DNA of 64,000 nt from Nitrospirota bacterium (GTDB lineage Bacteria > Nitrospirota > UBA9217): contig CAWGYL010000001.1 of assembly GCA_963826885.1 (NCBI GenBank), positions 145,777 to 209,776 of the forward strand, given 5' to 3'. The notes under the pieces are model-generated. The model made no database searches and was not told where the DNA came from. It saw only the letters and a program-made list of their open reading frames with translations. Shown here piece after piece: positions 4,513-32,236 of this stretch (positions are counted from its first letter, which is position 1; every line of letters starts with the position of its first letter). The position numbers and the translations under genes were made by a program.

Positions 4513-4564
4513 TCTCCATATTTTTTTGACAATAAACATCATTTTCCGGAGCATCTGACAAACA

Positions 4565-7293: not shown

Positions 7294-7474
7294 TTTGAAG
7301 GCAAAAGAACAAGAATCAAAATCGGCGCGGTCGCAGTAATCTGTTTTTCCAACAAGCTCGGTATCGGAAAGTCACTTAATCACCTGAAACAGAGTGATTC
7401 CAGTAAACCGGAATGGCGTTAAAAGCGAACGAATAGACTTTTTTAAAAGCCCATCAAATTTTCCGGAGGAATGA

Positions 7475-7741
7475 ATGACCGATCAGGAAATCATCGAGAA
7501 AACGAACAAGGTATTCGAGGAGTCCTTTGAGATCGAGAAGGAACGGCTTGTGCCGCAGGCGCAAATCTTTACCGATCTCGGCCTCGACAGCCTCGACATC
7601 GTGGATCTGATCGTCGCGCTCCAGAACAGCTTCGGCGTCAAGATCAGGAATGAGGAAAAAGTCAGAGAGATCAGGACACTTCAGGACATTTATAAATTCA
7701 TTGTATCCCTCAAGGGCGAGGAAAGCAAAAAGAGCTCGTGA
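7475..7741 (+). CDS. Acyl carrier protein (ACP1)
   Basis: 88 aa, acidic, DLGLDSLD phosphopantetheine site; GGAGG RBS. Confidence 0.95.
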   Translation: MTDQEIIEKTNKVFEESFEIEKERLVPQAQIFTDLGLDSLDIVDLIVALQNSFGVKIRNEEKVREIRTLQDIYKFIVSLKGEESKKSS

Positions 7742-8517: not shown

Positions 8518-8566
8518 GAAACGGTAGACTGCAGAAAGTAGGTAAGAGTCAGGGGAGTCTTGCACG

Positions 8567-9889
8567 ATGGCACTAATGATCAATATGATTGAATTCGACC
8601 GAAATAGAAAGCTTGAATTCTTAAGTCCCGGCGAGATACGGAAAGTGCAGGAAGGCTTGCTGCACAGGCACATGCATCATCTAGCGTCATCTTCGCCTTT
8701 TTATCGGAACCTGTTCCGAATAAAAGGCGTGGATATCAGCGGCGTGACCCTCGACAACCTACATAAGCTGCCGCTAACCGATAAGAGCATGCTGAGCGAG
8801 CATAACGACGATTTTCTCGCCGTTCCGCGAGCGCAAGTTGTGGACATCGTCCTTTCTTCGGGGACCACAGGAAGACCGACGGTCATGATGTATACGGAAA
8901 ACGATCTCCGCCGTCTGGCCTACAATGAGGAAATCTCGTTTACCGGCTGCGGTTTGACGCGAGAGGATGTTGTACTGCTGACCTGCACCCTGGACCGTTG
9001 TTTCATAGCAGGACTGGCATATTTCTCAGGCGTCCGAAGCCTTGGCGCGGCGGCGATCAGAAACGGGCTTTCTAGCTTTGAAAGCCATCTGGAAATCATC
9101 AAGAGAATGAAGCCGACAGCGCTGGTTGGCGTACCCACGTTCCTCATCAAGCTGGGCCAATTCATCCAGACGCAGGACATCGACCCTGCCTCGGTCGGAG
9201 TGGGAAAACTGATCTGCATCGGAGAGCCCATCCGCGACCGGGACCTTGAGTTCCTGCGAGTGGGAGCGGACCTCAAGGCCCTCTGGGGCGCCAGTATCTA
9301 TTCAACCTACGCATCTTCGGAGACTATTACGAGCTTTTGCGAGTGCACTACCCAGAAAGGCGGGCACCTGCACCCCGATTTGGCGATCGTGGAAATCGTG
9401 AACGAAGCGGGTGGGATCCTTCCGGCTGGGGAGATTGGAGAGGTGGTCATGACGCCCTTGTCCATAGAAGCTATGCCGCTGCTTCGATTCAGGACGGGGG
9501 ACATAAGCTTTCTTATGCATGAACATTGCTCCTGCGGAAGAAACTCGTCCCGCTTAGGCCCGATTCTTGGAAGAAAAAAACAGATGATCAAGTTCCGGGG
9601 AACAACGCTGTACCCGAACTCGATTTATACGGTGCTGGATTCGTTCCCGGAAGTCAGTGAATACTATGTCAGCGCATCGAGCGACTATGACTTGTCCGAC
9701 GTTGTGAAGGTCCATGTTGCGCTCAAGGACGCATCCTGTACAGCGGAGATGATCATGGACAAGCTTCAGGCTTATCTGCGGGTGCGGCCAGAGGTGGTCA
9801 TCGCAGACGAGGAAACCGTTAAAAAGCAAGTCTACTCCGGGAATCCGCGGAAATTAATCCGATTCGTCGATACGAGAAAGAGCCTATGA
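8567..9889 (+). CDS. Phenylacetate-CoA ligase (PaaK) family adenylating enzyme
   Basis: SSGTTGRP, TYASSE, LRFRTGD, GRKKQMIK. Confidence 0.88.
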   Translation: MALMINMIEFDRNRKLEFLSPGEIRKVQEGLLHRHMHHLASSSPFYRNLFRIKGVDISGVTLDNLHKLPLTDKSMLSEHNDDFLAVPRAQVVDIVLSSGTTGRPTVMMYTENDLRRLAYNEEISFTGCGLTREDVVLLTCTLDRCFIAGLAYFSGVRSLGAAAIRNGLSSFESHLEIIKRMKPTALVGVPTFLIKLGQFIQTQDIDPASVGVGKLICIGEPIRDRDLEFLRVGADLKALWGASIYSTYASSETITSFCECTTQKGGHLHPDLAIVEIVNEAGGILPAGEIGEVVMTPLSIEAMPLLRFRTGDISFLMHEHCSCGRNSSRLGPILGRKKQMIKFRGTTLYPNSIYTVLDSFPEVSEYYVSASSDYDLSDVVKVHVALKDASCTAEMIMDKLQAYLRVRPEVVIADEETVKKQVYSGNPRKLIRFVDTRKSL

Positions 9890-11373
9890 ATACCTGTCAG
9901 ACACAGATTTACGGTGCGGAATATTCCAATGAAGAGGTCGCCGAGGCGGTCCGGAACGGCAAACTGCTTTCCATGGAAATCGAGTTCAACAGCATCTGCA
10001 ATTTCCGTTGTGTGTACTGCTATGCGGCGGAAAACGGACAGCGGCGGAACGAACTAACGGTTGAACAGTTCCAGGACGTGATCACGCAGGCAAAGGAGCT
10101 GGGGGCACGTAAAATCATCGTTCTTGGCGGCGAGCCGATGCTCTATCCCTCGATCCTGAACATGCTGCAGTTCATCAGGCGGCTCGACATGGATGTCGAA
10201 CTCTTCACCAACGGTTCAGGAATCACGCCCGAAATGGCGCAGACGCTCTACGACATGCGTGTGCGTGTCGTGCTCAAGATGAACACGTTCGACGAGAAGC
10301 TCCAGGACACGCTTTCGGGAAGAAAAGGAGCATACGATCAGATCCGCCGGGCCTTCGACAATTTGAAACAGGCGGGCTATCCATCAGTGGACCGCTTCAT
10401 GGGAGTGAGCACCGTCATCTGCCGGCAGAACATCGACGAGCTTCCCAGACTATGGGAGTGGCTCCGGGACCAGAACATCGCCCCCTATTTCGAGATGATC
10501 ACTCCTCAGGGCGGAGCCAGGGACAACAGCGCGCTTGACATCAATACGAAAGAAGCTGAGGAATTCTTCCACAAGATCGCCGAGCTTGACAGGACGAAAT
10601 ACGGCCACCACTGGGAGCCGAGGCCGCCGCTGGTAGGAGGGGTATGCTTGCGCCATCAGTTTTCCTGCGCCGTGAACTCCGAAGGCTACGTCCAGCCCTG
10701 TGTCGGGGTCACGATCCCGATCGGGAATGTGCGGGAGAAAAAACTTGCTGATATCCTGAAAGACAGTGAGGTCGTCTCGGATCTGAAAAGCTACAGGAGC
10801 ATGATAAAGGGCCCCTGCGGCAACTGCGACCATATAAGTGTATGCTACGGCTGCAGGGGGGCCGCCTACCAGCTGACTGGCGATTACCTTGCCTCGGACC
10901 CCCTTTGCTGGAGGAACCTCGATAAAAAAGACGATATCATCTATCTTCCCGTGGATGCAGCGCTGCTCGTTCCCCACAAGCCGCCGATGCTACTCATCGA
11001 CCGCCTGCTGGAAATAAAAGAGCGGTCGTCCCTGTTGGAAATGACGGTTAAGGACAACACGATCTTTGTCGGAGCTGATAACAGGCTTGACGATGTGTCG
11101 TACCCGGAGATCCTGGCCCAGGCCATTGCTGCCCAGGAAGGATTCCGGAAGCTCGGATGCCGGGATTACCAACCAGAAGGGTTTCTGCTCGGACTGAAGA
11201 ACCTGGAAATCATCGGATCAGCCAGAGTCGGGGATACGCTCCAAATCTTCGTACAAAAAGTAGCCAAGTATGGAGACTTCGGCATCATCCAGGGCGAAGT
11301 CCGGAAAGGCAATGATGTGATAGCCCGCGGCGAATTGAAAGTCTACCAGAGCGACGGCAAGGTGGCCGCATAA
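9886..11373 (+). CDS. Radical SAM/SPASM protein fused to a C-terminal hot-dog (ApeP/FabZ-like) domain
   Basis: CNFRCVYC, GGEP, VQPC, CGNC..C.GC..DPLC SPASM cysteines; the last ~140 aa contain LVPHKPPMLLID...EILAQAIAA...GFLLG. Confidence 0.88.
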   Translation: MNTCQTQIYGAEYSNEEVAEAVRNGKLLSMEIEFNSICNFRCVYCYAAENGQRRNELTVEQFQDVITQAKELGARKIIVLGGEPMLYPSILNMLQFIRRLDMDVELFTNGSGITPEMAQTLYDMRVRVVLKMNTFDEKLQDTLSGRKGAYDQIRRAFDNLKQAGYPSVDRFMGVSTVICRQNIDELPRLWEWLRDQNIAPYFEMITPQGGARDNSALDINTKEAEEFFHKIAELDRTKYGHHWEPRPPLVGGVCLRHQFSCAVNSEGYVQPCVGVTIPIGNVREKKLADILKDSEVVSDLKSYRSMIKGPCGNCDHISVCYGCRGAAYQLTGDYLASDPLCWRNLDKKDDIIYLPVDAALLVPHKPPMLLIDRLLEIKERSSLLEMTVKDNTIFVGADNRLDDVSYPEILAQAIAAQEGFRKLGCRDYQPEGFLLGLKNLEIIGSARVGDTLQIFVQKVAKYGDFGIIQGEVRKGNDVIARGELKVYQSDGKVAA

Positions 11374-14418: not shown

Positions 14419-14419
14419 A

Positions 14420-15079
14420 ATGAGAACGCCAGCCTTGGTCATACTCCTGCTCGTTGCAGGATGCAGCGCTGTTCCTTTTCAAGAAACGGCCCGGGTACCA
14501 ATGGCGCCGGAGGCGCCTCGCAGCGTTGTCGAGCGATTTCAAGAACACATGCCGGACATTTTTCAATTGCTCAATACTGTTGTTTTTGAGTATAATTGGC
14601 GCAAGTTTGTTGGCATCGGCTCCATTGAAATCAACAGACGCGACTACCTGTTCAGGGTCGTGTGTCTCAACCCCATGGGCGTAAAATTGTTCGAACTTGA
14701 GGGAAACCGGGATAGGATTGTTCCCGTTTACTCGATCGCGGCATTCAGTAAATACGGCAATATCGCTTCCGTGGTTGGCACCGACATTAAGCGGATTTAC
14801 TTTGATCTAATACCTTCCACTGATGCGAGGATATGGAGAACAAGGTACAGCATCAGTTTCCGTCAAGCCTCAGGCGACGAAACGTTAGAGTATCTCTTTG
14901 CAGGAAAACAGGGTGACCTCGTCGAGAAGAATTATTACGACGGCAGCGGCCTTGCCTGGCGAGTTTCGTACTATGAGTATCAGGAACAGAGCGGCAAGCG
15001 GTTTCCCCGCGGAATTGTGCTGTTGAACTATCAGCACGGCTATCGCTTGATCGTACGGCAAAAGGAGTTCCATTCTTGA
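14420..15079 (+). CDS. Lipoprotein, DUF3261/LolB-like
   Basis: Lipobox VAG-C after hydrophobic stretch; PMGVKLFEL segment; usual position in aryl-polyene-type clusters. Confidence 0.6.
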   Translation: MRTPALVILLLVAGCSAVPFQETARVPMAPEAPRSVVERFQEHMPDIFQLLNTVVFEYNWRKFVGIGSIEINRRDYLFRVVCLNPMGVKLFELEGNRDRIVPVYSIAAFSKYGNIASVVGTDIKRIYFDLIPSTDARIWRTRYSISFRQASGDETLEYLFAGKQGDLVEKNYYDGSGLAWRVSYYEYQEQSGKRFPRGIVLLNYQHGYRLIVRQKEFHS

Positions 15080-15465
15080 GATCAATCAGGAAAGAAATCG
15101 AACAGTACATGACGGACCTGGCTTCCGAGGGGCAGACGCTGACGTCGCGCTTTGTATTCCCCGATGAATTCGTGGGGTTCCAGGGACATTTTCCCGGGAA
15201 GAAGATCCTGCCCGGCGTATGCCAGATCCAATGCGCACTCACGACGCTTGAAAAAGTGCACAAGAAGAGGGTGATTCTGAAACAGATCGCTCTTGCAAAG
15301 TATCTGGCTCCGGTATCGCCAGGGGAGGAAGTGATCTTTGTCTGCAGAATCTTGCCGCAGGACGATGGTCAGCTCACGGTGAAAGCGATCGCATCGAAGA
15401 ACAACACGAAAATTTCGGAGCTCAAACTCCAAGTCCGCTTCGCGGAAGAAGGCAGCGGCTGCTAG
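15076..15465 (+). CDS. 3-hydroxyacyl-ACP dehydratase (ApeI/FabZ-like)
   Basis: FQGHFPGKKILPGVCQ catalytic His motif. Confidence 0.88.
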   Translation: MRSIRKEIEQYMTDLASEGQTLTSRFVFPDEFVGFQGHFPGKKILPGVCQIQCALTTLEKVHKKRVILKQIALAKYLAPVSPGEEVIFVCRILPQDDGQLTVKAIASKNNTKISELKLQVRFAEEGSGC

Positions 15466-19205: not shown

Positions 19206-20575
19206 TGAAAATCCTGCTTATATCAGCTAACGTGACTCTGTCGCCGTACCCGATCTATCCGATCGGCGTAAGCATGATTGCCGGAGCACTCACGAAAGCG
19301 GGCCATGAAGTGCTACAGGTGGATCTGCTTCACCAGAACACATCGATGGAAGCCATTGCGGAAGAGGTGAGGAAATTCAACCCCGGCCTCGTCGGCATTT
19401 CGGTGCGGAACATCGACAACGTCAACCTGATGAACGAGCAATACTATATCCAGAATGTCAAGGACATCGTGAGCAGGATCCGGGAAGTCACGGCTGTGAA
19501 GGTGCTCCTGGGAGGGGCGGGCTTCTCGCTTATCCCGGATCTGATCCTGAAGGAGACCGGCGCGGATTACGGCATTGTCGGGGAAGGCGAGGTCCTTGCC
19601 GTCGAATTCGCAAACAATGCGGTAAACGGGATCTATCCCGCGGAGCGGCTTATCTCATCGGCACCGCGGTTGTCCGGGGCCGAGATCAACTCGGCGCTTT
19701 ATGACGAACGGCTGCTCGAATTTTACCTTCACAGCGGAAACATCGCCTCGATCCAGACGAAACGGGGATGCAGCTATAAATGCGTCTACTGCACCTATCC
19801 CGTGCTCGAAGGATCCAAGCTCCGCAGAAGGGAGCCCCGTGCGGTTGCCGACGACATTGAGCTGCTGAGGGACAAGTTCAAGACCAAGTATGTCTTCTTC
19901 GTCGATTCGGTGTTTAACGACGATGAGGGCGCCTACCTCGAGGTTATTGATGAAATGGAGAGACGCAACATCTCCATCCCTTGGACCGCATTCTTCAAGC
20001 CGCGCGGCCTAAACGACGAAATCGTGCAACGCATGAAGAAAACCGGTTTCGTTGCTGCCGAGGTCGGCGCCGATGCGGCCTGCGATACTACACTCCGGAA
20101 AATGGGCAAGAGCTTCACTTTCCGCGATATCGCGGAGTGCAACGACCTTTTTGTGCGGCACGGCATCGCTACGTCTCATTTCTTCATGTTCGGCGGTCCG
20201 GGGGAGACGCCCGATACGGTCCACGAGGGCATCAGGAATATTTTGAGCCTTCAGAAGTGCGTTGCATTCATCTTTATGGGCATCAGGATCCTGCCTGAGA
20301 CGGCGCTTGCGCGGCTCGCAATCAAGGAAAAAATTATTGCGCCCGATGACGGAATGCTTCATCCGGTTTATTATATATCACCTGCGGTGGACCAGAAATG
20401 GCTCGAAGAGACGCTGACCATGGCATTTAAGGGCGTACGTCACTGCGTGTTCCCGCCCGATGCCATGGACAACAGCCTTCAGGTGCTGCATAAGCTTGGT
20501 TACACCGGTCCCATGTGGGATCTGCTGCTGCCCGGGAAAAAACCCCGCGAGAGGCCGAGGCATGCGAGAAAATAA
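19202..20575 (+). CDS. Lipid-biosynthesis B12-binding radical SAM protein (TIGR04072-like)
   Basis: PYPIYPIG, ISVRNIDNV, TKRGCSYKCVYCTYP, FVDSVFND, FGGPGET. Confidence 0.88.
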   Translation: MMKILLISANVTLSPYPIYPIGVSMIAGALTKAGHEVLQVDLLHQNTSMEAIAEEVRKFNPGLVGISVRNIDNVNLMNEQYYIQNVKDIVSRIREVTAVKVLLGGAGFSLIPDLILKETGADYGIVGEGEVLAVEFANNAVNGIYPAERLISSAPRLSGAEINSALYDERLLEFYLHSGNIASIQTKRGCSYKCVYCTYPVLEGSKLRRREPRAVADDIELLRDKFKTKYVFFVDSVFNDDEGAYLEVIDEMERRNISIPWTAFFKPRGLNDEIVQRMKKTGFVAAEVGADAACDTTLRKMGKSFTFRDIAECNDLFVRHGIATSHFFMFGGPGETPDTVHEGIRNILSLQKCVAFIFMGIRILPETALARLAIKEKIIAPDDGMLHPVYYISPAVDQKWLEETLTMAFKGVRHCVFPPDAMDNSLQVLHKLGYTGPMWDLLLPGKKPRERPRHARK

Positions 20576-21755
20576 ACTCATACCTCATGACCGCATATGG
20601 ATCGTCATTCCGGTCTATAATAATAAGGACACCGTGAGGACGGTGGCTCAAGAATGCCGTTCTCTCATGAAAAACGTTCTCGTCATCGATGACGGCAGCA
20701 CGGATGCTGATCTATCCGCGCTCCTGTTCGGTCTGGATGTGGTCGTGCTGAAGCATTCGGAAAACCGCGGCAAGGGCCAAGCCATCATGACAGGGTGTTG
20801 CTATGTCGAGAACCATGGCGGCGAGTACATGATCACCATTGATGCCGACGGCCAGCATCTGCCTCGTGACATCGGGAAAATCCTTCCACTGATAAACGAA
20901 CAGCATCCGATGATCGTCATCGGGTCCCGCAATTTCAATACTGATCATGTCCCTGCATCGAGCCGTTTCGGCAGGTCCTTTGCAAATTTCTGGTTTCGCG
21001 TCGAAACAGGCAGAATCGTGGATGACTGCCAGAGCGGTTTTCGCGCGTACCCCGTGCATTATCTGAAGCAGATGAAGTTCAAAGGCGTCCGGTATGATTT
21101 CGAGGCTGAGGTTCTGGCCAAGGTAGCATGGGCAGGTCTTGCAATAACAACGGTACCTATCGAAGTCCGGTACCCGAAGCCGGAAGAACGAGTGTCGAGC
21201 TTCAAGCCCTTGCTCGACAATATGAGGCTCACAGCCATTCACTCCATGCTCGTGGGAAGAAGGCTCGTGCCATGGCCGCACAAGAAACTGGTCAAGGATG
21301 CGAATGCCTTCGACGTCTCACTGCTCCGGCATCCGGGAAAAGTGCTCCGGATGCTGATCATGGAGCAGGCAACACCGGAAGGACTGGCGATGTCGGCGGC
21401 CATGGGCATGTTCCTGGCCGTACTGCCGCTCCTATTCGTGCATTCCCTCGTGATCCTGTACGTCGCGCTTCGGCTGAATCTAAACAAGATCGTGGCGCTC
21501 AATGTCCAGCATCTGGCCATGCCGCCGTTCATCCCGGCGCTCTGCATCGAGGTCGGCTACTATCTGCGACATGGAGAATGGCTTACGGACCTGTCGTTCA
21601 CAACGGTTTTTGAGCAGTTCTCGTCTCGACTGTACGAGTGGTTTCTAGGGTCGCTCATCATCGCGCCGCTGTCCGCTGTTCTGATCGGAGCGGTAATGTA
21701 CATCGCGGCGGCAATGATAAAAAGAGTAAGGTATGTCAATGGCGGCAAGGAATAG
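20562..21755 (+). CDS. Family 2 glycosyltransferase with C-terminal membrane DUF2062-like domain
   Basis: IPVYNN, DDGSTD, NRGKG, IDADGQH, DCQSGFRAYP; hydrophobic C-terminus. Confidence 0.88.
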   Translation: MRENKLIPHDRIWIVIPVYNNKDTVRTVAQECRSLMKNVLVIDDGSTDADLSALLFGLDVVVLKHSENRGKGQAIMTGCCYVENHGGEYMITIDADGQHLPRDIGKILPLINEQHPMIVIGSRNFNTDHVPASSRFGRSFANFWFRVETGRIVDDCQSGFRAYPVHYLKQMKFKGVRYDFEAEVLAKVAWAGLAITTVPIEVRYPKPEERVSSFKPLLDNMRLTAIHSMLVGRRLVPWPHKKLVKDANAFDVSLLRHPGKVLRMLIMEQATPEGLAMSAAMGMFLAVLPLLFVHSLVILYVALRLNLNKIVALNVQHLAMPPFIPALCIEVGYYLRHGEWLTDLSFTTVFEQFSSRLYEWFLGSLIIAPLSAVLIGAVMYIAAAMIKRVRYVNGGKE

Positions 21756-22641
21756 TGTTGAGAGGAAGCGAGGCAACAGGCTGGGTTTCTGGTTTTTTCG
21801 CGTCGCTGTCCGGACCTTCGGCCTGCGCGGCGCCTATGGTTTTCTCTACTTCGTCGTTCTCTACTATCTGGCAGTCGACCATGCGGTCGTCTCGGCAAGT
21901 CTTGCCTTTGCCCGAAGGCGTTTTCCGGAGCATGGGGCGATTCGCAGGCTCCTGGACGTGTACCTGCTTTTTGTCAACCAGGGCAAAAACCTTATCGATC
22001 GGTTCGCTGTTGCGTCAGGATATAAGGATATCGACATCGAGCTCAAGGACCTGGAGAAGCTCCAGGCCTTTCTCGCAAAGCAGCCTAAAGGCTTCATCCT
22101 GCTGACCGCACACGTGGGAAACTGGCAGGTGGCAATGACGGCGCTCAGGAAACTCGGCCGGACCGTGCACCTCATGATGCGGCCCGAAGACAACGCGGCG
22201 GTCAAGGAGGCTTTGCAGGTCGACAGCGAGCAGGAGCAAGTGAAGGTCATCTTCACCGATGATACGCTCGGAGGGGTCATCGAGGCGATGAAGGCCGTCA
22301 ACCGGGGCGAGATCGTGTCGATCATGGGCGACCGAACCTATGGGTACAGCGCAACCGGTGTTTCGTTCCTCGGCAGCGAGGTTCGGTTCCCCCATGGCGC
22401 CTTCAGTCTCGCGGCTGCTGCGCAGTGCCCCGTGGTAGTCCTGCTTTCGGCCAGGATCGGCGTGAAACGGTATGTCGTGGACGTTTCCCACATCATCGCC
22501 GCGCCTGCTGGAAGTCGGGGTGGGAACAGCGAGGCGATGAAGGCCGCTGTCCAGGAGTTCGCGCGCGTGCTCGAGGGATATGTGGTGGACTATCCCTATC
22601 AATGGTTTGTGTTCCGTGACATATGGAAGTCCAATGATTAA
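21733..22641 (+). CDS. LpxL-like lysophospholipid acyltransferase
   Basis: TAHVGNWQ, IMGDR, YPYQWF. Confidence 0.85.
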   Translation: MSMAARNSVERKRGNRLGFWFFRVAVRTFGLRGAYGFLYFVVLYYLAVDHAVVSASLAFARRRFPEHGAIRRLLDVYLLFVNQGKNLIDRFAVASGYKDIDIELKDLEKLQAFLAKQPKGFILLTAHVGNWQVAMTALRKLGRTVHLMMRPEDNAAVKEALQVDSEQEQVKVIFTDDTLGGVIEAMKAVNRGEIVSIMGDRTYGYSATGVSFLGSEVRFPHGAFSLAAAAQCPVVVLLSARIGVKRYVVDVSHIIAAPAGSRGGNSEAMKAAVQEFARVLEGYVVDYPYQWFVFRDIWKSND

Positions 22642-22647
22642 TGAATA

Positions 22648-22950
22648 ATGCATCGAGATAAGGAGCGAATGATGGCGCATACCAAGGAGCAGGAGCTGCA
22701 GAAGATACGGGAGGAATTGAAAGAGATGATCGTGAAGGACCTGAGCCTCGAGGATATCAAGCCCGAGGATATTAAAGACGACGAGGTCCTTTTCGGCGAG
22801 GGAGTTGGGCTGGATTCTCTTGATGCCGTCGAGATCGTGGTTCTCCTTCAGCGCAATTACGGCCTCGAAGTCAAGAACATGGATCAGGGGAAAGAAATCC
22901 TCCGTTCCATCGATACCATCGCCAACTACGTCTACGACAACAAGAAGTAA
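22648..22950 (+). CDS. Acyl carrier protein (ACP2)
   Basis: LFGEGVGLDSLDAVE; acidic. Confidence 0.93.
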   Translation: MHRDKERMMAHTKEQELQKIREELKEMIVKDLSLEDIKPEDIKDDEVLFGEGVGLDSLDAVEIVVLLQRNYGLEVKNMDQGKEILRSIDTIANYVYDNKK

Positions 22951-23166
22951 AGTCCTTGAAGCCGGGCAAGCGGAGCAGGGTTGCGCGTGTCAACAGCCCC
23001 TTTGCCCCCGGATGGGGACATTCCCGACCGTTACGCCCCTGCCGGAAAGCGGCAGGCGACTGAAGACTGCTGTCTTCTTCCCGTGGCAGGAAGGACTATT
23101 TACGGGAAAACGCAATGTTTCATCAAAGAACAAGGCCTGAGCATGCCGGCAGGGGAGAATAGCCAT

Positions 23167-24534
23167 ATGGAAAAAAATGCAGTGCTCGATGTTATAAGGA
23201 AAAATCTTTTCTATGGATCTGCAGAATATACGAAGAGCCAGCCGGACCTGTTTATTCCTCACCGGTTCAAAATCCTGGCGCCGTCACAGGTGGACAGCTT
23301 TCTTGAGAAAGTAAAAAAAAGTTTGACGGAGGAGGAAATATTGTTGTACGTTCACCTTCCGTTCTGCGCCTCCGAATGTTTTTTTTGCAACTCCTTCCCT
23401 CATAAAGTGAACAAGGAAGTCCAGACTGAGTACCTCGATAATCTGTTGAAGGAGATTGAGCTGGTGGCGGGCCATGGGGTATTCAAGGGCAAGAAAGCGA
23501 AATGCATTTCCCTCGGGGGCGGCACTCCCACATCATACTCCAATTACGATCTTGAGCGTATTTTAGATGTAATTTCATCAAACATAGATTTATCCGATGC
23601 CTGTAGCATCACTTCGGAAGCGCATCCTCACACGCTCGCCCATACAAAGAGAATCAGGGAATTAAAAGCCATAGGCATCAACAGAATCAGCATCGGTTGC
23701 CAGACATTCGACCGGGGAACGCTTCTCCTGTGCAATAGAAATAACACGAAGGAACAGGTTGCAGGGATAGTCAGGGATGCGCAGGACGCCGGCATAGCGA
23801 TCAATATCGACATGATGACCGGACTTCCGGGACAGACCATGGAACACGTGAAAAGCGATCTCGAAATACTTGCCAGCATACGTCCTGATTCAGTCGAGTA
23901 TATCAGGCATGAAATAGTGAACCCACTTGTCGTCAAACTGTACAAGGATCAGCCGAGTCTGGTTGTCAGCCATGACACCCTTTTCGAGATGGTCTATACA
24001 ACGCAAGAATGGATGAGCGCAAACGGATACGAGCAAAACGGCAGGTTCACCAATGATAAACAATGGGCATACCGGTATTATTGGCTCAAGGAAATGCCGA
24101 TCATCGCGTTCGGTTCGCGGACGCGGTCGTACACCAAGACGATGTGCTTTGACAAGTATGAAGAGCTTTCCGTCTATTCGCGTATTCTCAGGAAGGGCGG
24201 CCTGCCTATCACCAGGTACATCGAGCTTACGGAACGAGAACAGATGTTCCGATCACTGTTGCTGAACCTGCAGATAGCAGAGGGGCTTGACAGCAAACAG
24301 TTTCGCGCTCGATTTGCCGCGGACCCGGTGGATGTCTTTTCACCGCTCGTTGCAAAGCTTCGCGAATACGGGTGCCTCAACCATGAAACCGCGGCTATTC
24401 AGTTGTCGAAATACGGCGCTTATTTCGTAGAGGACATTTGCGACTACATTATCGATACAGTATTAAAAGAGGAATCGGGTAGCCTGGCACGAACTCCCCA
24501 TTCAGATGGGCGCACCTCTACGAGGCTTCATTGA
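23167..24534 (+). CDS. HemN-like (class C) radical SAM protein
   Basis: LYVHLPFCASECFFC, LGGGTPT, RISIGCQTF, DMMTGLPGQT; GGGGAG RBS before ATG 23167. Confidence 0.88.
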   Translation: MEKNAVLDVIRKNLFYGSAEYTKSQPDLFIPHRFKILAPSQVDSFLEKVKKSLTEEEILLYVHLPFCASECFFCNSFPHKVNKEVQTEYLDNLLKEIELVAGHGVFKGKKAKCISLGGGTPTSYSNYDLERILDVISSNIDLSDACSITSEAHPHTLAHTKRIRELKAIGINRISIGCQTFDRGTLLLCNRNNTKEQVAGIVRDAQDAGIAINIDMMTGLPGQTMEHVKSDLEILASIRPDSVEYIRHEIVNPLVVKLYKDQPSLVVSHDTLFEMVYTTQEWMSANGYEQNGRFTNDKQWAYRYYWLKEMPIIAFGSRTRSYTKTMCFDKYEELSVYSRILRKGGLPITRYIELTEREQMFRSLLLNLQIAEGLDSKQFRARFAADPVDVFSPLVAKLREYGCLNHETAAIQLSKYGAYFVEDICDYIIDTVLKEESGSLARTPHSDGRTSTRLH

Positions 24535-24590
24535 CTGAAGAAACGCACTTGTCCGGCATTGTCACGAACCATTCTATCGTGTGGTATTTT

Positions 24591-25526
24591 ATGAGTCGTC
24601 TAATCATAATCACAATAGCATTGTCTTTCCTCCTGTCCTGCAACGGTGCGCATCAACAATACGATTCGCCCCGCACTGTGTCGGTCCCTTTGTTCACTTA
24701 CATCCTGGACGACGGCAATGATACGGATTACTTGGTGGCGAAGGAGATTTTCACAGAACAGGGTGCCGTTGCCTGCTCTGCGGTCACGACGGACTGGATC
24801 GGCAAGAACAACCATCTGACCGCTGATCAGATCAGGGCGCTCCGCGACGCGGGCTGGGAAATCATGAGCCACACGGTATCCCATCACCATCTCACGTCAC
24901 TCAATGCCGCGCAGATCGAGGATGAGTTTTCACGGTCGATCGCTACGCTCGAGAGTTTGGGTGTGACGGTGCACAATATCGTCTATCCCTACAACCAGAG
25001 CAACGAGTTGGTCAGAAAGATTGCGGCAAAATACTACCGGTCTGGCAGGGGCGGGACGTATGCTGTGAATTATGCAGGCACAGATCCTTATTTTTTAAAA
25101 TCTTTTCCCTATAAACACGATCTCACCGGGATGAAGCAGACTATCGATCATTCGTATGCCGATCGAGCCTGGCTCATAGTGTATCAGCATGAGGTAGATA
25201 TCAAGATCGATATCACGGACAGGAGGGGAACTTTTGTCCCAGGAGAGCACTTGACCTTTAGCCCGTCGGGCGCAGTGGGCAGGTATGAAGCGCCTGCGTG
25301 GTTCCAGTATTTTGGGTCGCTCTATTTCGTTCCCCTGGCTGGAACACCACAACCTGGGGACTGGATATTGGGAAAGTCAAGCAATGCATCGGCGAAGTTC
25401 AATCATGTTATATACGACGACCGCGCGGCCATCATCGATATGATACGGTATGTCCGTACGAAGTATCCAGACATGCGCATCGTGACCGTAGATCAGGGGC
25501 TGAATTTGCTGGGGATGGCGAAATAG
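24591..25526 (+). CDS. Lipoprotein polysaccharide deacetylase (NodB/CE4)
   Basis: Lipobox LLS-C; ILDDG, EIMSHTVSH, VYPY, YQHEV. Confidence 0.82.
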   Translation: MSRLIIITIALSFLLSCNGAHQQYDSPRTVSVPLFTYILDDGNDTDYLVAKEIFTEQGAVACSAVTTDWIGKNNHLTADQIRALRDAGWEIMSHTVSHHHLTSLNAAQIEDEFSRSIATLESLGVTVHNIVYPYNQSNELVRKIAAKYYRSGRGGTYAVNYAGTDPYFLKSFPYKHDLTGMKQTIDHSYADRAWLIVYQHEVDIKIDITDRRGTFVPGEHLTFSPSGAVGRYEAPAWFQYFGSLYFVPLAGTPQPGDWILGKSSNASAKFNHVIYDDRAAIIDMIRYVRTKYPDMRIVTVDQGLNLLGMAK

Positions 25527-25615
25527 ATCGGAACCCCAAATGCAGACAAGCTTGGGACCACCAGCTCCGCGTTGCGGAACACACGGATAAACAGGTCTAG
25601 GTAAAACACATTCCA

Positions 25616-26791
25616 ATGAGCGAAACCTCTATTCTCATAACCGGCATGGGAGCAATATCCGCGGCGGGAGACACGATTCCTGAAACGCTTGCAACATTCG
25701 AGCGCGGGCAACGGAATGCGGGACCGGTTACGCGTTTTCCCACGAAACTGACCTATCCTGTTTTCGAGGTCAAGAACCTGCCGTCTCGGTATTTTCTCGA
25801 AGGTCAACGAACCTTGAGCCTAGCTCTCATTGCCGTTGACCAGGCCCTTGCCGAAGCAGATCTCGGCGATGTATCAGGACTTCGCATCGGCGTGTGCATG
25901 GGCACGACTGTGGCCAGCCAGTTGAACGACCTTCAATTTTACACTTCATTCCGCGAGCGCGACGAAGCGCCGATGACTGCGGTTGAACGGTTTCTGAAAG
26001 GGAACCTGGCAGAGGTCATCAGCCGCAAGCTCAAGGCGCGCGGACCAGCGCTTACTGTGGTGAACGCCTGTTCTTCGGGGACCGATGCCATCGGCGTTGC
26101 ACTTTCTTGGCTCAGGAGCAATCTTTGCGACATCGCTCTTGCAGGCGGCGCTGATGAACTGAATCACGTTCCTTACTGCGGGTTTGGCTCGCTCGGCATC
26201 GTAAACCCCGGGTTGTGCGCCCCCTTTGACAGGGATCGGAAAGGGCTGAACCTCGGTGAAGGTGCCGGCGTCGTGGTCCTAGAGAAGACGACCGCGCGGA
26301 AGCGAGGACGATCGTCGGAGCTTGTTCTTCTCGGGTACGGCTCATCGAGCGATGCATATCACCTTACCGCCCCGAGCCCTGACGGCGTTGGACTCAAGGC
26401 ATCGCTCAGGACTGCGCTCGATGAGGCTGGTATTAAACCGGAAGAGGTGGGCTTCGTGAACGCCCATGGCACCGGCACGCATGACAATGATCTCGTGGAG
26501 GGTAATACGCTGGCCGGAATGTTCGGAAAAGACCTGAAGATGCTTTCCACCAAGGGATACACCGGCCATACGCTCGGAGCGGCAGGGGGACTCGAGGCAG
26601 TGTTCACGGCGCTCGGTCTCCGGGAGGGCTGGATACCGGCAAGCGCGGGATTTTCAAACCAGGACGCTGCCATCGCTCTCGCCCCGGTGCGGGTAAAAAC
26701 GGAGGTAGGCGGTTACTATGCAATCTCAACATCGCTGGCCTTCGGGGGCAATAATGCCGCGCTCGTGATCGGGCGGGGAGTAAGGGAATGA
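25616..26791 (+). CDS. Beta-ketoacyl-ACP synthase (KS3)
   Basis: NACSSG, VNAHGTGT, KGYTGHTLG, FGGNN. Confidence 0.94.
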   Translation: MSETSILITGMGAISAAGDTIPETLATFERGQRNAGPVTRFPTKLTYPVFEVKNLPSRYFLEGQRTLSLALIAVDQALAEADLGDVSGLRIGVCMGTTVASQLNDLQFYTSFRERDEAPMTAVERFLKGNLAEVISRKLKARGPALTVVNACSSGTDAIGVALSWLRSNLCDIALAGGADELNHVPYCGFGSLGIVNPGLCAPFDRDRKGLNLGEGAGVVVLEKTTARKRGRSSELVLLGYGSSSDAYHLTAPSPDGVGLKASLRTALDEAGIKPEEVGFVNAHGTGTHDNDLVEGNTLAGMFGKDLKMLSTKGYTGHTLGAAGGLEAVFTALGLREGWIPASAGFSNQDAAIALAPVRVKTEVGGYYAISTSLAFGGNNAALVIGRGVRE

Positions 26792-27858
26792 ATGTTCTCG
26801 GGATCGGAGCCGTGTTTGCTGGAGGCATCGGCATCAAAAGCTTAGAAGAGACCCTGGTCGCAGGGTGGCAAAAGCCGGTTGACGTGGAGGCCAAATGGGC
26901 AGCGAGTGGAAAATACCCGGTATATCAGGCAAATCTCGACGACGTCCCGGATAAGACGATACTTAAAAAAGTCAGGCGCGCGGACCGGTTAAGCAAGATG
27001 GCGGTGATCTGCGCTGCGGATGCGATCAAGGATAGTGGAATCAGGGATATCAATAGGGAGAAAGTGGGCGTAATCGTAGCAACCGCATTTGGCGCGCACG
27101 TGACGACCTTCGGTTTTCTCGACAATATCCTCGATTTTGGCGAAACTGCCGTTTCTCCCACGATATTTTCAAATTCGGTGCATAATGCCGCGGCTTCCTA
27201 TGTTTCGTCGTCGCTTGACATCAAAGGGCCGACGCTCACCATAACGCAGTTCCGCTTTTCCTTCCAGTCGGCGCTGCAGCTTGCGCTTGTCTGGCTTCAG
27301 CAGAAGCGCTGCGATTATGTTCTGGCCGGCGCTGTGGATCAGTTCGGCGATGTACTGTGTTATGTTGCCGACCGGAAGCTGACCACAGCCCAGGATGGCA
27401 GGATTAAGCCATTTGTCTTCAAGCCAACCTTCCAGGTGCCTGGTGAAGGCGCAATTTTTTATATTTTGGGGCGTGAGAAGATGGAGAAGGCCTATTGCAC
27501 TGTTCAATCAGTCATGATCAATGACAATACTTCGCAGGGCGCGGGTACGGATGTCATAATCATCGATGCCGACGGCATGCTTCCCGACGAGTCGGCTTAT
27601 CTTGCCTGCGCTGATTCAGGGGTGTTGCTTGCGGCATATTCTCCGCTTTTCGGAACGATGATGACGGGCAGCGCCTTTAATGTGGCCGCCGGCGCATTGA
27701 TGCTGAGCAAACAGCGCTATTTCCCGAACCCGGTACAGGATAATCCCCAGGGTCTGAGAATACTGACTGATAGCGGATCGGCGAATATAGCAGCAATTGA
27801 ATGTGTCGGATACGACTGTCATTCTACGAGAGCAGCAGTTCGTTTGATCGCTATATGA
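26788..27858 (+). CDS. Chain-length factor / non-catalytic KS partner (CLF2)
   Basis: RRADRLSKMA, SPTIFSNSVHNAAAS; no catalytic Cys. Confidence 0.82.
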   Translation: MNVLGIGAVFAGGIGIKSLEETLVAGWQKPVDVEAKWAASGKYPVYQANLDDVPDKTILKKVRRADRLSKMAVICAADAIKDSGIRDINREKVGVIVATAFGAHVTTFGFLDNILDFGETAVSPTIFSNSVHNAAASYVSSSLDIKGPTLTITQFRFSFQSALQLALVWLQQKRCDYVLAGAVDQFGDVLCYVADRKLTTAQDGRIKPFVFKPTFQVPGEGAIFYILGREKMEKAYCTVQSVMINDNTSQGAGTDVIIIDADGMLPDESAYLACADSGVLLAAYSPLFGTMMTGSAFNVAAGALMLSKQRYFPNPVQDNPQGLRILTDSGSANIAAIECVGYDCHSTRAAVRLIAI

Positions 27859-27904
27859 AACGCATATAAGACATCAATTGAATCACTCATCGTGAGGAAC
27901 TATC

Positions 27905-28147
27905 ATGACTGTAGAAGAAATCGAAAGAAAATTGATCGACGGTATTTCAGCAATTACGAATAAGAATGCGTCGGAGATCACCGTGGACAAGGCCTTTCAT
28001 GATCTCGGCATCGACTCGATGGGATTCGTTGAAATTCTCGTGTACATCGAAAAGACCTTTAAGCTCCAGCTGATCGCGTCGGACCTGACCAAGAAGGATT
28101 TCGAGAGCATCCGTTCACTGGCAACACATATCAACAGGAAATTGTAG
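27905..28147 (+). CDS. Acyl carrier protein (ACP3)
   Basis: DLGIDSMGFVE; 80 aa. Confidence 0.92.
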   Translation: MTVEEIERKLIDGISAITNKNASEITVDKAFHDLGIDSMGFVEILVYIEKTFKLQLIASDLTKKDFESIRSLATHINRKL

Positions 28148-28161
28148 GAATTCAGGTCATT

Positions 28162-29478
28162 ATGCTGGAATCGAAACGCAAACGCTACCTTTCCGGATCA
28201 GACTGGGTCATCAATACGTTGGACCGGATGATGAAGTCCGCCACCTGCGTTGGGAACATATCCCAGATCGTGCTACAGCTCGGTTCAACCCTTCAGCAGA
28301 ACGAAGTACGTAATGCGTTGAACCGTTTTGTCAAAAAATTTCCCGTAATTAGTGGACGCGGAGCACGCGATATCAGACTGGCGCCGTACTGGAAAATTCC
28401 GCGGAAAAACGATGGCGAAATATCTTTTCATACGGTTGCCCCGGATAACAACACGTCACCGGGTGATAACTTTTCTTTCCTTGAAAAGAGCGCGAACGCT
28501 CCATTCCGCGACAAGAGAGACTACCTGTCCTTTCAGTTTCTGCCGAACGGAGGCCGAAATGTTATATCAATGACCTTCGACCATCGCCTTTTCGATGCCA
28601 GGGGCGCGGAAGCGTTTTTGAGCCTCTTTCAACAGGATGTCATGGATGGCAGCGTAGATGGCGACATCACCTTCGTATCTTCGGCGGCCCTGACGCAGTG
28701 GTCGCGGAAATTCCGCGCTGGCCAGAACGTGAACCGCAGGATCATCGCGTTGTCGAAATCTACACCCGAGCAGTTGCCCCTTCATCGTGAAGGCAGCGGC
28801 GCCTACCGGTATCGGTTGATTTCGTTCACCCCCGGGGAGACTGAAGATGTTTACAAACGCGCTTACCATGAAGCAGGCTACCTCATGGAGTCTCCCTTTT
28901 TCCTCGCCGTAATCATACAGGCCATGCATGATCTGTTTATTCGGCGGTATCGTACCCGGTCGAGCTATCTGATCCCGGTCACTGTAGATCTCAGACCGAA
29001 CGCGGACGCATTGCAGGAGATATTTTTCAATTATGTATCCTATCTTTTTTATCAGATCCCGGTGCAGGAGGCAGGCGACCAGCCAAAGATCATCGCATCA
29101 CTCAAGCAGCAGATGTATGATCAGGTAAAAGCCGGTTTTCCGAAAGACCTGGCCGAAGCCAGCCAACTAACTCGCATTGCACCACCGTCAATCCTTGGCA
29201 GGCTTCTTCATTTGCCCCTGAAGGGGAAAATGGCGACGTTTGCCTTTTCCCATCTCGGCAAAAGCTCGTACCACCATGGAGATTTTATGGGAGCAAAAAT
29301 CGAGAACCTATTCCATATGCCGCGCGTACCGGTGCCGCCGGGACTGGGGTTCTTCACGAATTATTTCAACGGCAGATTAAATATAGTTCTGTCCCATCTC
29401 GACGGTTTATTGAAGGATGAAGAAGTAAAAATGCTGGAGGCTGGAATCAGAGCACGATGCGGAGTTCCGAAAACGTGA
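28162..29478 (+). CDS. Condensation-domain/CAT-fold acyltransferase (PapA5/alcohol acyltransferase-like)
   Basis: FDHRLFDARG (HxxxD), PVTVDLR, FSHLG. Confidence 0.7.
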   Translation: MLESKRKRYLSGSDWVINTLDRMMKSATCVGNISQIVLQLGSTLQQNEVRNALNRFVKKFPVISGRGARDIRLAPYWKIPRKNDGEISFHTVAPDNNTSPGDNFSFLEKSANAPFRDKRDYLSFQFLPNGGRNVISMTFDHRLFDARGAEAFLSLFQQDVMDGSVDGDITFVSSAALTQWSRKFRAGQNVNRRIIALSKSTPEQLPLHREGSGAYRYRLISFTPGETEDVYKRAYHEAGYLMESPFFLAVIIQAMHDLFIRRYRTRSSYLIPVTVDLRPNADALQEIFFNYVSYLFYQIPVQEAGDQPKIIASLKQQMYDQVKAGFPKDLAEASQLTRIAPPSILGRLLHLPLKGKMATFAFSHLGKSSYHHGDFMGAKIENLFHMPRVPVPPGLGFFTNYFNGRLNIVLSHLDGLLKDEEVKMLEAGIRARCGVPKT

Positions 29479-30698
29479 AACAGATCGTCTGTGACGTCCT
29501 CGTGATCGGAGGAGGAGTTGCCGGAACGCTGGCTGCTGTTGCGGCGGCCCGCGTCGGTGCACGCACCTTGCTTGCTGAGAGGGAAACATACCTTGGCGGC
29601 ACGGGGTACGCGGGATTGCTTCAGCATATTTGCGGTCTTTATCTGAATGGGGACGCAGTTCCTGCTGATACCCTGAACAAAGGGTTGGTGCGTGAAGTCG
29701 CTGCCCTGTTGCTGAGGTACTCTCCGAAAACGGGAATACAAAAAATCGGAAAAGTTTATGTGCTTCCTTATGAACGCGAGGGGCTCCGGATAGTTCTGGA
29801 AACACTATGCAGAAATGAAAACCGGCTAATGGTGATGCGGGAAAACGCTGTGGAATCGGTAGAGAGACAGGGCTCGGATATTAGGAGGGTTGTGACTATA
29901 TCCGCCGGAGTTCGCACCGTTCTCGAGTCGGCGGTGGTTGTCGACTGCTCGGGAAATGGGGAGGCAGCCGCTCTGGCAGGTGCTGAGTCCGATCTTGCGA
30001 TTGAACATGAACGTCAGCTTGCCGGGTATGTAATACAGATAAAAGGATTGCATGATGCCGATGAAACACTTTCAGTAAAAGTACCCTATTATATAGCCCG
30101 AGCGGTGAACGAAGGCAGGCTGTCTTATTCCGCGAAATTTACGACGTTTTCTCTGGGCGCTAATCCCGGGGAAGGTTATTGCAAGATGAGCGTTGAAGGA
30201 GAGAAAAGCCCGGAGCGTGAAAGCCTCGCAAAAAGAGATGCCTCATCCATCCATGCCATGCTCGCCGAAGCACTGACTGCATTTAACAAATCATGGATTG
30301 CCGATAGCTCTCTGAGCGTGGTCGATCGTGAAGGGAGAAGAATCAAGGGCGATTATATTCTGACGCGGGAAGATGTACTGCAGGCCAGAAAATTTGCCGA
30401 CAGTGTGGTGAAAAATGCCTGGCCCATCGAACTTTGGAACAAGGAGAAAGGGACGTTATACGAATACATTCCCGAGGGCAATTACTATGAGATCCCCTTC
30501 AGGTGCCTGATGGTCAAGGGGATATCGAATCTTCTGACAGCAGGCCGATGTATTTCCGTAACGCATGAAGCGCTCGGCTCAACTCGCGTCATGGGGACCT
30601 GTATGGCATTGGGAGAACAGGCAGGGCGAGCAGCTGCTTACAGGGCATTAAACGGGACCTATCCTACCGACATAAAATCGTTTTCTGGCAACAGATAA
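29475..30698 (+). CDS. FAD-dependent oxidoreductase (FAD_oxidored family)
   Basis: DVLVIGGGVAG, DCSGNG, REGRRIKG, YEIPFRCL, AGRCIS...RVMGTCMALGEQAG. Confidence 0.85.
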   Translation: MKQIVCDVLVIGGGVAGTLAAVAAARVGARTLLAERETYLGGTGYAGLLQHICGLYLNGDAVPADTLNKGLVREVAALLLRYSPKTGIQKIGKVYVLPYEREGLRIVLETLCRNENRLMVMRENAVESVERQGSDIRRVVTISAGVRTVLESAVVVDCSGNGEAAALAGAESDLAIEHERQLAGYVIQIKGLHDADETLSVKVPYYIARAVNEGRLSYSAKFTTFSLGANPGEGYCKMSVEGEKSPERESLAKRDASSIHAMLAEALTAFNKSWIADSSLSVVDREGRRIKGDYILTREDVLQARKFADSVVKNAWPIELWNKEKGTLYEYIPEGNYYEIPFRCLMVKGISNLLTAGRCISVTHEALGSTRVMGTCMALGEQAGRAAAYRALNGTYPTDIKSFSGNR

Positions 30699-30716
30699 AA
30701 GAGAAAGGGGTTGCGC

Positions 30717-32174: not shown

Positions 32175-32236
32175 GGTTCAAGGAGAGTTGGATGAAATAT
32201 ACGCCTTTTTGTTAGAATTTCTTTCTTCAATAACGA

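Follow-up and report, generated by a model that had tools for sequence, protein, structure and literature searches.

A radical SAM/SPASM module fused to an ApeP-type dehydratase half in aryl-polyene/flexirubin-like clusters of anaerobic bacteria, with a possible role at the starter stage

The DNA analysed here, called the window throughout, is a stretch of 64,000 nucleotides from a Nitrospirota bacterium (GTDB lineage Bacteria; Nitrospirota; UBA9217; GenBank assembly GCA_963826885.1, contig CAWGYL010000001.1, positions 145,777 to 209,776). On its forward strand, bases 9886..11373 form a single uninterrupted open reading frame (ORF) of 495 amino acids (P0001), in which a radical S-adenosylmethionine (SAM) enzyme with a SPASM domain is followed by a hot-dog domain. 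The ATG of this fusion gene overlaps the end of an upstream ligase gene (8567-9889) by 4 bases and its stop codon overlaps the start of a LolA-like gene (11373) by 1 base, so that the fusion gene is part of a tightly packed operon. The radical SAM core (residues 33-188, bases 9982..10449) is recognised by Pfam (PF04055, 89.1 bits against a cut-off of 29.5) and by Foldseek, and contains the CxxxCxxC motif of C38, C42 and C45 (bases 9997-10020) as well as the SAM-binding GGEP motif at residues 81-84. Next comes the SPASM domain (residues 254-341, bases 10645..10908), of which residues 254-315 match PF13186 with 29.8 bits (cut-off 21.5) and which has eight cysteines (C254, C261, C272, C311, C314, C320, C323 and C341) predicted to hold two auxiliary [4Fe-4S] clusters. 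The SPASM consensus is CX9-15GX4C ... CX2CX5CX3C ... C. Here the spacing is C254-x12-G267-x4-C272, C311-x2-C314-x5-C320-x2-C323 and C341, plus C261; the fusion belongs to the family by its Pfam score, and its final spacing is x2 where the consensus has x3. The hot-dog domain (residues 355-492, bases 10948..11361) is identified by a PDB sequence match and by Foldseek, and includes the stretches PHKPPMLLID (residues 363-372) and EILAQ (residues 408-412), the first residue of the latter, E408, being encoded by bases 11107-11109. An AlphaFold model of the whole protein reached a predicted local distance difference test (pLDDT) value of 91.4 and a predicted template modelling score (pTM) of 0.89. 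An earlier note on this DNA, made without database searches, had described one ORF with radical SAM and SPASM cysteines and then a hot-dog domain; the 495-residue frame, the Pfam matches and the motifs bear out that description.

An apparent fusion can result from assembly or annotation, when two adjacent genes are read as one. For comparison we used 160 related loci, 80 from species genomes and 80 from metagenomes; the genome scan confirmed at least 559 of 599 candidate stretches, of which 80 are listed. In all 160 loci the two parts share a reading frame that no stop interrupts, so the stop or frameshift between the domains that the earlier note had named as grounds for abandoning the fusion does not occur in any of them. 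The same note had suggested a search for the combined radical SAM, SPASM and hot-dog architecture, and the best 120 of 2259 database hits all share the length and the precomputed domain list of the fusion. A DNA contig from an independent study covers bases 9702-12041, junction included, with 15 substitutions and no insertion or deletion. Full-length copies occur within Nitrospirota in 38 of the 401 genomes sampled and, at the level of the window's own genus, in 3 of 14. What speaks for an artefact is a pair of exceptions in this phylum, one relative with an internal TAG (G570) and one in which the gene is split (G511); the split in G511 falls near residue 390, which is within the hot-dog domain and away from the domain junction. 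Short hot-dog matches that had been considered as further split genes were rejected, because most of them are cut off on contigs of about 1 kb. The fusion is thus confirmed as real and conserved, and an assembly or annotation artefact has next to no chance of being the explanation.

The identification of the hot-dog domain as the ApeP-type half of a heterodimeric 3-hydroxyacyl-acyl carrier protein (ACP) dehydratase is well supported by sequence comparison and structural modelling. Its best PDB sequence match is 6qsr_B (E 1.3e-7), a chain of the entry entitled [quoted passage not shown]. The window encodes a second hot-dog protein, an ApeI-like subunit of 129 amino acids on the same strand (15076..15465, hereafter ORF 15076), and its best PDB sequence match is the companion chain, 6qsr_A. 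In Foldseek, the AlphaFold model of the fusion aligns with 6qsr_B at a target-normalised TM-score of 0.78 and a root mean square deviation of 2.8 over 145 columns. E408 aligns with the Glu of an ExxAQ motif common to both proteins, and R400 occupies the position of the His in the X. doucetiae ApeP. Conservation of the residues of the fusion was counted in 156 aligned homologs: E408 and Q412 are invariant, and position 400 is His in only 4 of them. ORF 15076 has the motif GHFPG with the predicted His donor, H38 (bases 15187-15189), and G37, H38 and F39 are invariant in 40/40 orthologs; at the position of the Asp in 6qsr_A these orthologs have Gln or Leu and never Asp or Glu, the residue in ORF 15076 itself being Gln. 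The earlier note had it right that the hot-dog domain lacks the canonical His, the aligned position being R400, and that a separate His-bearing dehydratase is encoded at 15076.

FabZ-type dehydratases draw their catalytic His and Glu from different subunits, and we take the catalytic residues of ApeI:ApeP to follow from this FabZ chemistry. The structure prediction with ORF 15076 proposed in the earlier note was run with the full-length fusion and gave ipSAE interface scores of 0.88, 0.88 and 0.87, against 0.00 for the best control; 58 of 80 solved complexes attain that mark, and 2 of 110 mismatched pairs do so. Contacts agreed to at least 98% between runs, and the pLDDT of the partner was at least 88. 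On the fusion side the predicted interface is confined to residues 363-442, E408 included, and on the side of ORF 15076 it comprises residues 1-6, 33-40, 46-55 and 67-76. The pair thus has the fold of ApeI:ApeP and a predicted sheet-to-sheet interface like that in 6QSR, and differs from it in that the ApeP-type half bears a radical SAM/SPASM enzyme of 350 residues at its N-terminus. For ApeI and ApeP, a heterodimer with a single active site has been described (PMC8041823, partial text). By alignment and model, one composite site formed by His38 of ORF 15076 and Glu408 of the fusion is the most likely arrangement. The word "non-catalytic", which the earlier note used for the hot-dog domain of the fusion, is therefore too strong, given the invariance of E408 and Q412 and the location of E408 at the predicted interface.

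Natural single chains provide independent support of the "Rosetta stone" kind for the ApeP/ApeI pairing. One of them, P0169 (652 amino acids), combines radical SAM, SPASM and ApeI-like domains by Pfam, and its residues 359-491 are of the ApeP type in a phmmer search with the hot-dog part of the window's protein as query. Another, of 289 amino acids (L005:5279-6145), has an ApeP-like N-terminal half by sequence and an ApeI-like C-terminal half by Pfam; this double hot-dog gene belongs to a second cluster located upstream of the fusion at that locus. An ApeI-like gene is present in 44/48 and 17/19 of the fused loci whose downstream flank extends for 9 kb or more.

Judged from its motifs, the N-terminal module carries three [4Fe-4S] sites together with an intact SAM motif, and it is probably catalytically active. 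Among the 156 aligned homologs, C38, C42, C45, G81 and G82 are conserved in all and E83 in 155; of the SPASM cysteines, C261 is conserved in 154 and the other seven in all. Foldseek searches with the model return SkfB, SuiB, PqqE, BlsE, MoaA and anSME at E values of 1e-16 to 1e-10. In NCBIfam, the highest scores are those of AhbD (TIGR04545, 139.3 bits) and NirJ2 (TIGR04055, 131.4 bits), each with a cut-off of 500, and lower scores were obtained with TIGR04053 (120 bits, cut-off 395) and PqqE (113 bits, cut-off 381), so that all four remain under their cut-offs. The three-cluster layout is the same as in AhbD, NirJ, PqqE and MftC, but the fusion is not a member of these families, given scores far below cut-offs of 381-500, and no enzyme of these families is known to carry a fused hot-dog domain or to act within an acyl-carrier pathway. 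No heme-pathway gene was found among the neighbours of the fusion annotated by Pfam and NCBIfam.

Most SPASM enzymes modify proteins or peptides, and the nearest solved structures include the peptide-modifying SkfB, SuiB, PqqE, CteB and anSME. The module could accordingly be imagined as a maturase that modifies the ACP, a ketosynthase or a small peptide that has escaped notice. We consider this very unlikely. The radical SAM core begins near residue 30, which leaves no room for an N-terminal peptide-recognition domain; no conserved small ORF that might encode a precursor peptide was noticed in the cassette, in passing and with no systematic search made; and the top curated families, AhbD and NirJ, consist of small-molecule enzymes.

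By gene content, the fusion sits in a rigid cassette of the aryl-polyene/flexirubin-like ("ladderane-type") kind, in a cluster that extends from 3703 to about 33664 with all its genes on the forward strand. Upstream of the fusion lie a ketoreductase/short-chain dehydrogenase (KR/SDR, 3703-4512), a phytoene-desaturase-like flavoprotein (4565-6061), a ketosynthase (KS, 6058-7293), an ACP (ACP1, 7475-7741; PP-binding in Pfam, ACP in NCBIfam) that is conserved in the cassette and likely to carry starter and chain, a PlsC-type acyltransferase (7738-8517), and the adjoining ligase (8567..9889), which is a FlxY/ApeH/PaaK-like candidate starter ligase with an NCBIfam FlxY score of 463 bits (cut-off 520). 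Downstream follow the LolA2-like gene (11373-12041), whose score is above the NCBIfam cut-off for LolA2_flexi, an MMPL/RND exporter (12034-14418), a conserved cassette protein of 264 amino acids without Pfam or NCBIfam match (14285-15079), ORF 15076, a thioesterase (15467-15952), a KS (15919-17073), a KS-like protein resembling a chain-length factor (CLF; 17264-17947), and two B12-binding radical SAM enzymes, here B12a (17937-19205) and B12b (19202-20575). The remaining cluster (20460..33664) begins with a GT2-DUF2062 protein, an LpxL-like acyltransferase and an ACP. It further holds a HemN-like radical SAM gene (22981-24534) with a polysaccharide deacetylase next in the list, a second KS/KS-like/ACP set (25616-28147), a conserved cassette protein of 438 amino acids without Pfam or NCBIfam match (28162-29478), a FAD oxidoreductase, a third B12 radical SAM enzyme (30711-32174) and an AMP-ligase (32237-33664). 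Where no other source is given these assignments come from Pfam, and for the exporter, the thioesterase and the KS/CLF-like pair from Pfam and NCBIfam. As listed, the gene of the 264-residue protein has 134 bases in common with the end of the RND gene, and its true start is probably later; it occupies the position that the DUF3261/LolB-like ApeN has in E. coli.

The published aryl-polyene set consists of ligase, ACP, KS/CLF, KR, ApeI and ApeP, thioesterase, LolA, RND exporter and acyl- and glycosyl-transferases (PMC8253772 Table 1, partial text). The entire aryl-polyene/flexirubin gene set was found within 3703-22641, the ligase, LolA, RND exporter, thioesterase and KS/CLF pair being common to the window and to aryl-polyene clusters. 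From the KR to the GT2 gene the cassette is collinear in the 80 genome loci listed. The cluster as a whole has five radical SAM genes, namely the SPASM fusion, the three B12-binding enzymes and the HemN-like one, and B12a and B12b are both present in 43/48 and 16/19 of the fused loci with at least 9 kb downstream. B12a is the best-conserved cassette protein across groups: in loci from the phylum of genome G003 (Desulfobacterota by the label of locus L017) it is 59-64% identical (L181-L189), against 25-50% for the majority of the other cassette proteins. It is found both in cassettes that have the SPASM module and in cassettes that lack it, whether or not an ammonia-lyase is present, and looks like a core pathway enzyme in anaerobes. 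A coupling of the SPASM module to the pair of B12 radical SAM enzymes had been suggested by two loci with a standalone ApeP and no B12 genes (L098, L099). This idea was rejected, since 8 of the 10 standalone-ApeP cassettes of G003's phylum carry B12a at 59-64% identity, and one locus (L186) combines an ammonia-lyase with both B12a and B12b.

The origin of the fusion was approached with a quick maximum-likelihood tree on the radical SAM part (62 rows). All 26 fused rows fall in a clade of 29 with a Shimodaira-Hasegawa-like approximate likelihood ratio (SH-aLRT) of 92 (99 for a core of 27 rows), and the sister of the fused forms is a group of standalone enzymes that includes the one of locus L095 (SH-aLRT 98; 96 for the joint clade). 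These standalone orthologs are 43-47% identical to the radical SAM part of the fusion. The cluster at L095 runs from a deacetylase through KS, KS-like, methyltransferase, KS, ligase, radical SAM/SPASM and B12 radical SAM genes to KR, ACP, FabA/Z, ACPS, methyltransferase, MMPL, desaturase-like and glycosyltransferase genes. This order matches the published list from kuste3352 to kuste3335 (PMC4790861, Table 2, partial text), the equivalence resting on gene order and not on sequence comparison. In Kuenenia stuttgartiensis (kuste3335-3352) and in Desulfotalea-type clusters, a radical SAM gene is located beside a phenylacetyl-CoA-ligase gene (PMC2649909, PMC4790861, partial texts). Clusters of the Kuenenia type were seen in five loci (L094-L097 and L089, from genomes G588, G531, G638, G516 and G239), which belong to the window's phylum and, in one case, to the phylum of genome G001; they have a standalone radical SAM ortholog, an ordinary FabA/Z dehydratase and two SAM methyltransferases. 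The window and the Kuenenia type thus share a ligase adjoining the enzyme and a B12 radical SAM gene nearby, whereas in the latter the enzyme is unfused and the dehydratase is of the ordinary FabA/FabZ type.

When loci are compared, the radical module proves to be linked more closely with the starter ligase than with the dehydratase. The ligase lies directly upstream of the fusion, on the same strand, in 62/70 and 50/55 loci. Ligase and unfused radical SAM gene stay adjacent in the Kuenenia-type clusters (L089, L094-L097) and also in genome G1034, where a free ApeP is encoded 10 kb off in the same cluster. These observations bear on an iterative reading, close to that of the earlier note, in which the radical SAM domain acts in every cycle on the enoyl-ACP released by the fused dehydratase; hydrogen abstraction could then lead to cyclisation, cross-linking, methylene transfer or additional desaturation. 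The covalent fusion to a dehydratase half and the confident single-body model are in line with it, as are the four additional radical SAM genes and the phytoene-desaturase-like gene in the cluster. Radical SAM action on 2-enoyl intermediates has been proposed for related clusters (PMC13459092, PMC10139942, partial texts), and a similar notion underlies the "type c" ladderane proposals. A comparable case is Jaw5, a HemN-like radical SAM enzyme that works with the iterative jawsamycin synthase (PMC13459092, partial text); Jaw5, like the fusion, is proposed to act on carrier-bound unsaturated acyl intermediates, but it is unfused, whereas the fusion is of the SPASM class and the window has its separate HemN-like gene at 22981-24534. 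Against action in every cycle stand the close orthologs that are unfused and lie beside the ligase, away from the dehydratase; the identity of the constant neighbour, which is the ligase and not ApeI; the loss of the radical SAM motif in many fused relatives, discussed below; and the sister cassettes without the module, which retain the same KS, KR and dehydratase set and have an ammonia-lyase instead. We regard this reading as less likely than action at the starter stage, but as a serious rival to it.

The exchange with an ammonia-lyase points to a role of the module in the loading of the starter. In the flexirubin starter module, FlxA is a tyrosine ammonia-lyase and FlxY is the ligase. The window resembles that module in its FlxY-like ligase and its LolA protein and differs in the lyase (PF00221), which is found in sister cassettes and of which there is none in view at the window or at the 160 fused loci. 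At locus L186, the ammonia-lyase occupies the slot between ligase and ApeP in which the window has the radical SAM module, and at L098-L100 the lyase opens the cassette. A tblastn search with the lyase matched four loci, all of them standalone-ApeP cassettes, and gave no match in the 160 fused loci, 62 of which have room upstream of the KR, or in the window. At the level of whole genomes, PF00221 is absent in 6 of 7 fused genomes tested and present in 4 of 4 standalone-ApeP genomes tested of one order, a fifth genome of that order having been identified by tblastn. Ten standalone-ApeP cassettes were compared in G003's phylum. The two with a ligase have either the lyase (L186) or the radical SAM ortholog (G1034), and the other eight have no ligase in view and neither lyase nor radical SAM ortholog in view; genome-wide, seven of these eight have neither, and the eighth (G1075) has a lyase on another contig. 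The pattern that survives is that the two never occur together in the clusters seen and that a ligase is accompanied by one or the other. In the window's own genome, which is 90% complete, neither PF00221 nor the UbiC-type PF04345 was found, XanB2-type chorismatases not having been searched; the usual sources of an aromatic starter were thus not found there.

Fusions that join a loading-stage enzyme to a dehydratase half are known from other combinations. In a lyase-type sister cassette of genome G129 (L191:4481-6259), a frame of 593 amino acids contains AMP-binding and ApeP-like domains by Pfam and represents a ligase-ApeP fusion. In the ApeH-ApeI fusion of Acinetobacter baumannii, an adenylating ligase is joined to one dehydratase protomer and pairs with the other protomer (PMC8041823, partial text). 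The A. baumannii protein and the window's fusion are alike in joining a loading-stage enzyme to one protomer, and differ in that the former combines a ligase with ApeI and the latter a radical SAM enzyme with ApeP. Loading enzymes have thus been fused repeatedly to dehydratase halves. From these fusions, together with the constancy of the ligase, the exchange with the lyase and the pattern of a ligase accompanied by lyase or radical SAM enzyme, we infer that the unit loaded by the ligase is the substrate of the module.

The explanation that we favour, at a probability of roughly 0.55, is that the fusion is a subunit with two functions in a type II polyketide/fatty-acid lipid pathway of the aryl-polyene/flexirubin-like kind in anaerobes, and that its radical module acts at the starter stage. 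The ApeP-type domain would supply Glu408 and the product of ORF 15076 would supply His38, together making up a single dehydratase site. Comparative genomics suggests that the substrate of the radical module would be either the unit with which the FlxY/ApeH-like ligase charges the carrier protein or the earliest intermediates derived from that unit. The module would fill, free of oxygen, the loading-stage job that is done by a tyrosine ammonia-lyase in the sister cassettes, and through the fusion it would be held at the dehydratase, to which this carrier-bound thioester also binds. For the reaction itself, one speculative scheme is that a hydrogen is abstracted from the carbon adjoining the aromatic ring of a saturated aryl-alkanoyl thioester and that an electron leaves via the auxiliary clusters to give an α,β-unsaturated starter of the cinnamoyl or coumaroyl type, in an oxidation similar to those of AhbD and MftC. 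This chemistry is speculation, guided only by the nearest curated families. In a more specific version, the module would be an oxygen- and ammonia-lyase-independent maker of the unsaturated aryl starter, a saturated aryl-alkanoate being loaded first and then desaturated or oxidatively decarboxylated on ApeI:ApeP; in this precise form we hold the proposal to be tentative and rather unlikely.

A number of observations weigh against the starter-stage explanation or against its parts. The match of residues 358-492 to the ApeP-like family PF22817 scores 20.8 bits, and 24.2 bits in a six-frame search, both below the Pfam cut-off of 27, although the family stands in the precomputed Pfam lists of all 120 best database hits. 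The score of the predicted complex may reflect memory of the solved 6QSR structure, which would make it an indication of likeness and not a proof. All scores with named radical SAM families are far below their cut-offs, so that the proposed chemistry rests on loose kinship. The gene is covered only in part by contigs that come from two RNA libraries of a single study and do not amount to proof of transcription. There is no ligase at 3 of 70 fused loci, and one fused genome (G005) has two PF00221 genes elsewhere. The five genomes of one order that have a lyase are related to each other and do not count as independent cases, and the lyase pattern as a whole derives from few independent lineages. 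A strict rule of either lyase or radical SAM enzyme was rejected, since 7 of the 10 standalone-ApeP genomes of G003's phylum have neither. Finally, a fusion to a dehydratase fits action in each extension cycle equally well.

A further point is the distribution of the radical SAM motif in the wider family. Among 35 diverse fused representatives, taken from clusters at 50% identity, CxxxCxxC is kept in 13 and lost in 22, so that in much of the fused family the N-terminal part is no radical enzyme. The 22 representatives without the motif retain C311, C314, C320, C341, E408 and Q412, and in the tree such forms are nested within the fused clade, so the loss of the motif is secondary. The existence of many fused relatives without the motif indicates that the dehydratase half persists independently of radical chemistry, and the SPASM part may form one structural unit with the hot-dog domain. 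From here it is a short step to regarding the N-terminal part as a structural or redox appendage of ApeP, that is, an Fe-S scaffold or an electron relay to, e.g., the flavoprotein or the B12 enzymes, with no radical catalysis. The degenerate forms with their retained SPASM cysteines and hot-dog domain, their nested position, and a class of proteins of about 350 amino acids with SPASM and hot-dog parts only are what this explanation has in its favour. The clade of the window speaks against it: there, the cluster ligands and GGE are kept in 155-156 of 156 homologs from many differently labelled groups, which argues for purifying selection on catalysis. An appendage without radical catalysis is therefore improbable for the protein of the window.

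The forms without CxxxCxxC bear, by Atlas label, most commonly the name Planctomycetota. A metagenome scan with an alignment of such forms listed 80 loci, in 79 of which the motif is intact, the remaining one (L146) being cut at the contig end. The class of about 350 amino acids (P0180, P0214, P0216, P0230, P0233 and P0234) consists of an N-terminal stretch of about 120 residues, SPASM and hot-dog, most of the radical SAM barrel being deleted; P0230 and P0234 still begin with CxxxCxxC. Two longer proteins are either true fusions or read-through gene calls: P0148 (720 amino acids), composed of the fusion and a LolA domain, and P0202 (717 amino acids), composed of a PlsC acyltransferase, a degenerate radical SAM/SPASM part and ApeP.

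The fused cassette occurs in anaerobes whose labels span about ten bacterial groups. In the listed genome loci, the labels given by the depositors are Nitrospirota, Geobacterales and other Desulfobacterota, Omnitrophota, Planctomycetes, Verrucomicrobiota, Kiritimatiellia, Lentisphaerae, Deferribacteres and Bacteroidales. Some of these labels probably do not match the reference taxonomy; for example, loci labelled "Planctomycetia" (e.g. L058) fall in G001's phylum, whose genomes in the set compared are small (0.7-3.7 Mb). In G003's phylum, an ApeP-like gene is present in 30 of 401 genomes, fused in 3 and free-standing in 27. DNA nearly identical to that of the window is present in sequencing runs labelled as soil, peat and wetland metagenomes.

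Some elements of this picture are already known, namely the ApeI:ApeP heterodimer, the ApeH-ApeI fusion and the existence of enigmatic clusters rich in radical SAM genes. No paper describing the fusion was found in the literature searched, which covered the topics of aryl polyenes, ApeI/ApeP, SPASM and ladderanes and left subscription journals largely outside. The new elements are that the radical SAM module adjoins the starter ligase even where it is unfused, that sister cassettes lacking it have a tyrosine ammonia-lyase in its stead, with no examined cluster containing both, and that CxxxCxxC has been lost in 22 of 35 fused representatives.

"Ladderane-candidate" or anaerobic polyunsaturated-lipid clusters have been discussed since 2009 for Kuenenia, Desulfotalea and Geobacter (PMC2649909, partial text), and genome-mining software assigns the name "ladderane" to such clusters in many phyla other than those of anammox bacteria, their product and function being described as not known (PMC9902471, partial text). 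The radical SAM genes of ladderane- and aryl-polyene-type clusters have been a loose end over the same period (PMC2649909, partial text). The fusion shows that one such radical enzyme belongs to the carrier-protein machinery, and it offers a predicted two-protein complex suited to expression and assay. The linkage to the ligase and the exchange with the lyase make the radical chemistry testable with a small set of components (the ligase, the ACP, candidate acids and the fusion enzyme), and fused relatives, in which the motif has repeatedly been lost, provide a natural control that can tell which functions need radical chemistry. If the module acts on the starter, this would constitute a new type of SPASM reaction, on a small molecule bound to an acyl carrier, and would be relevant to the oxygen-free synthesis of polyene lipids in anaerobes. 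If it makes the unsaturated starter independently of a lyase, no radical SAM enzyme before it would have been shown to act on an acyl starter bound to a carrier protein, and a function could be assigned to the long-enigmatic radical SAM gene that neighbours the CoA-ligase gene in the "ladderane-candidate" clusters of Kuenenia and Desulfotalea.

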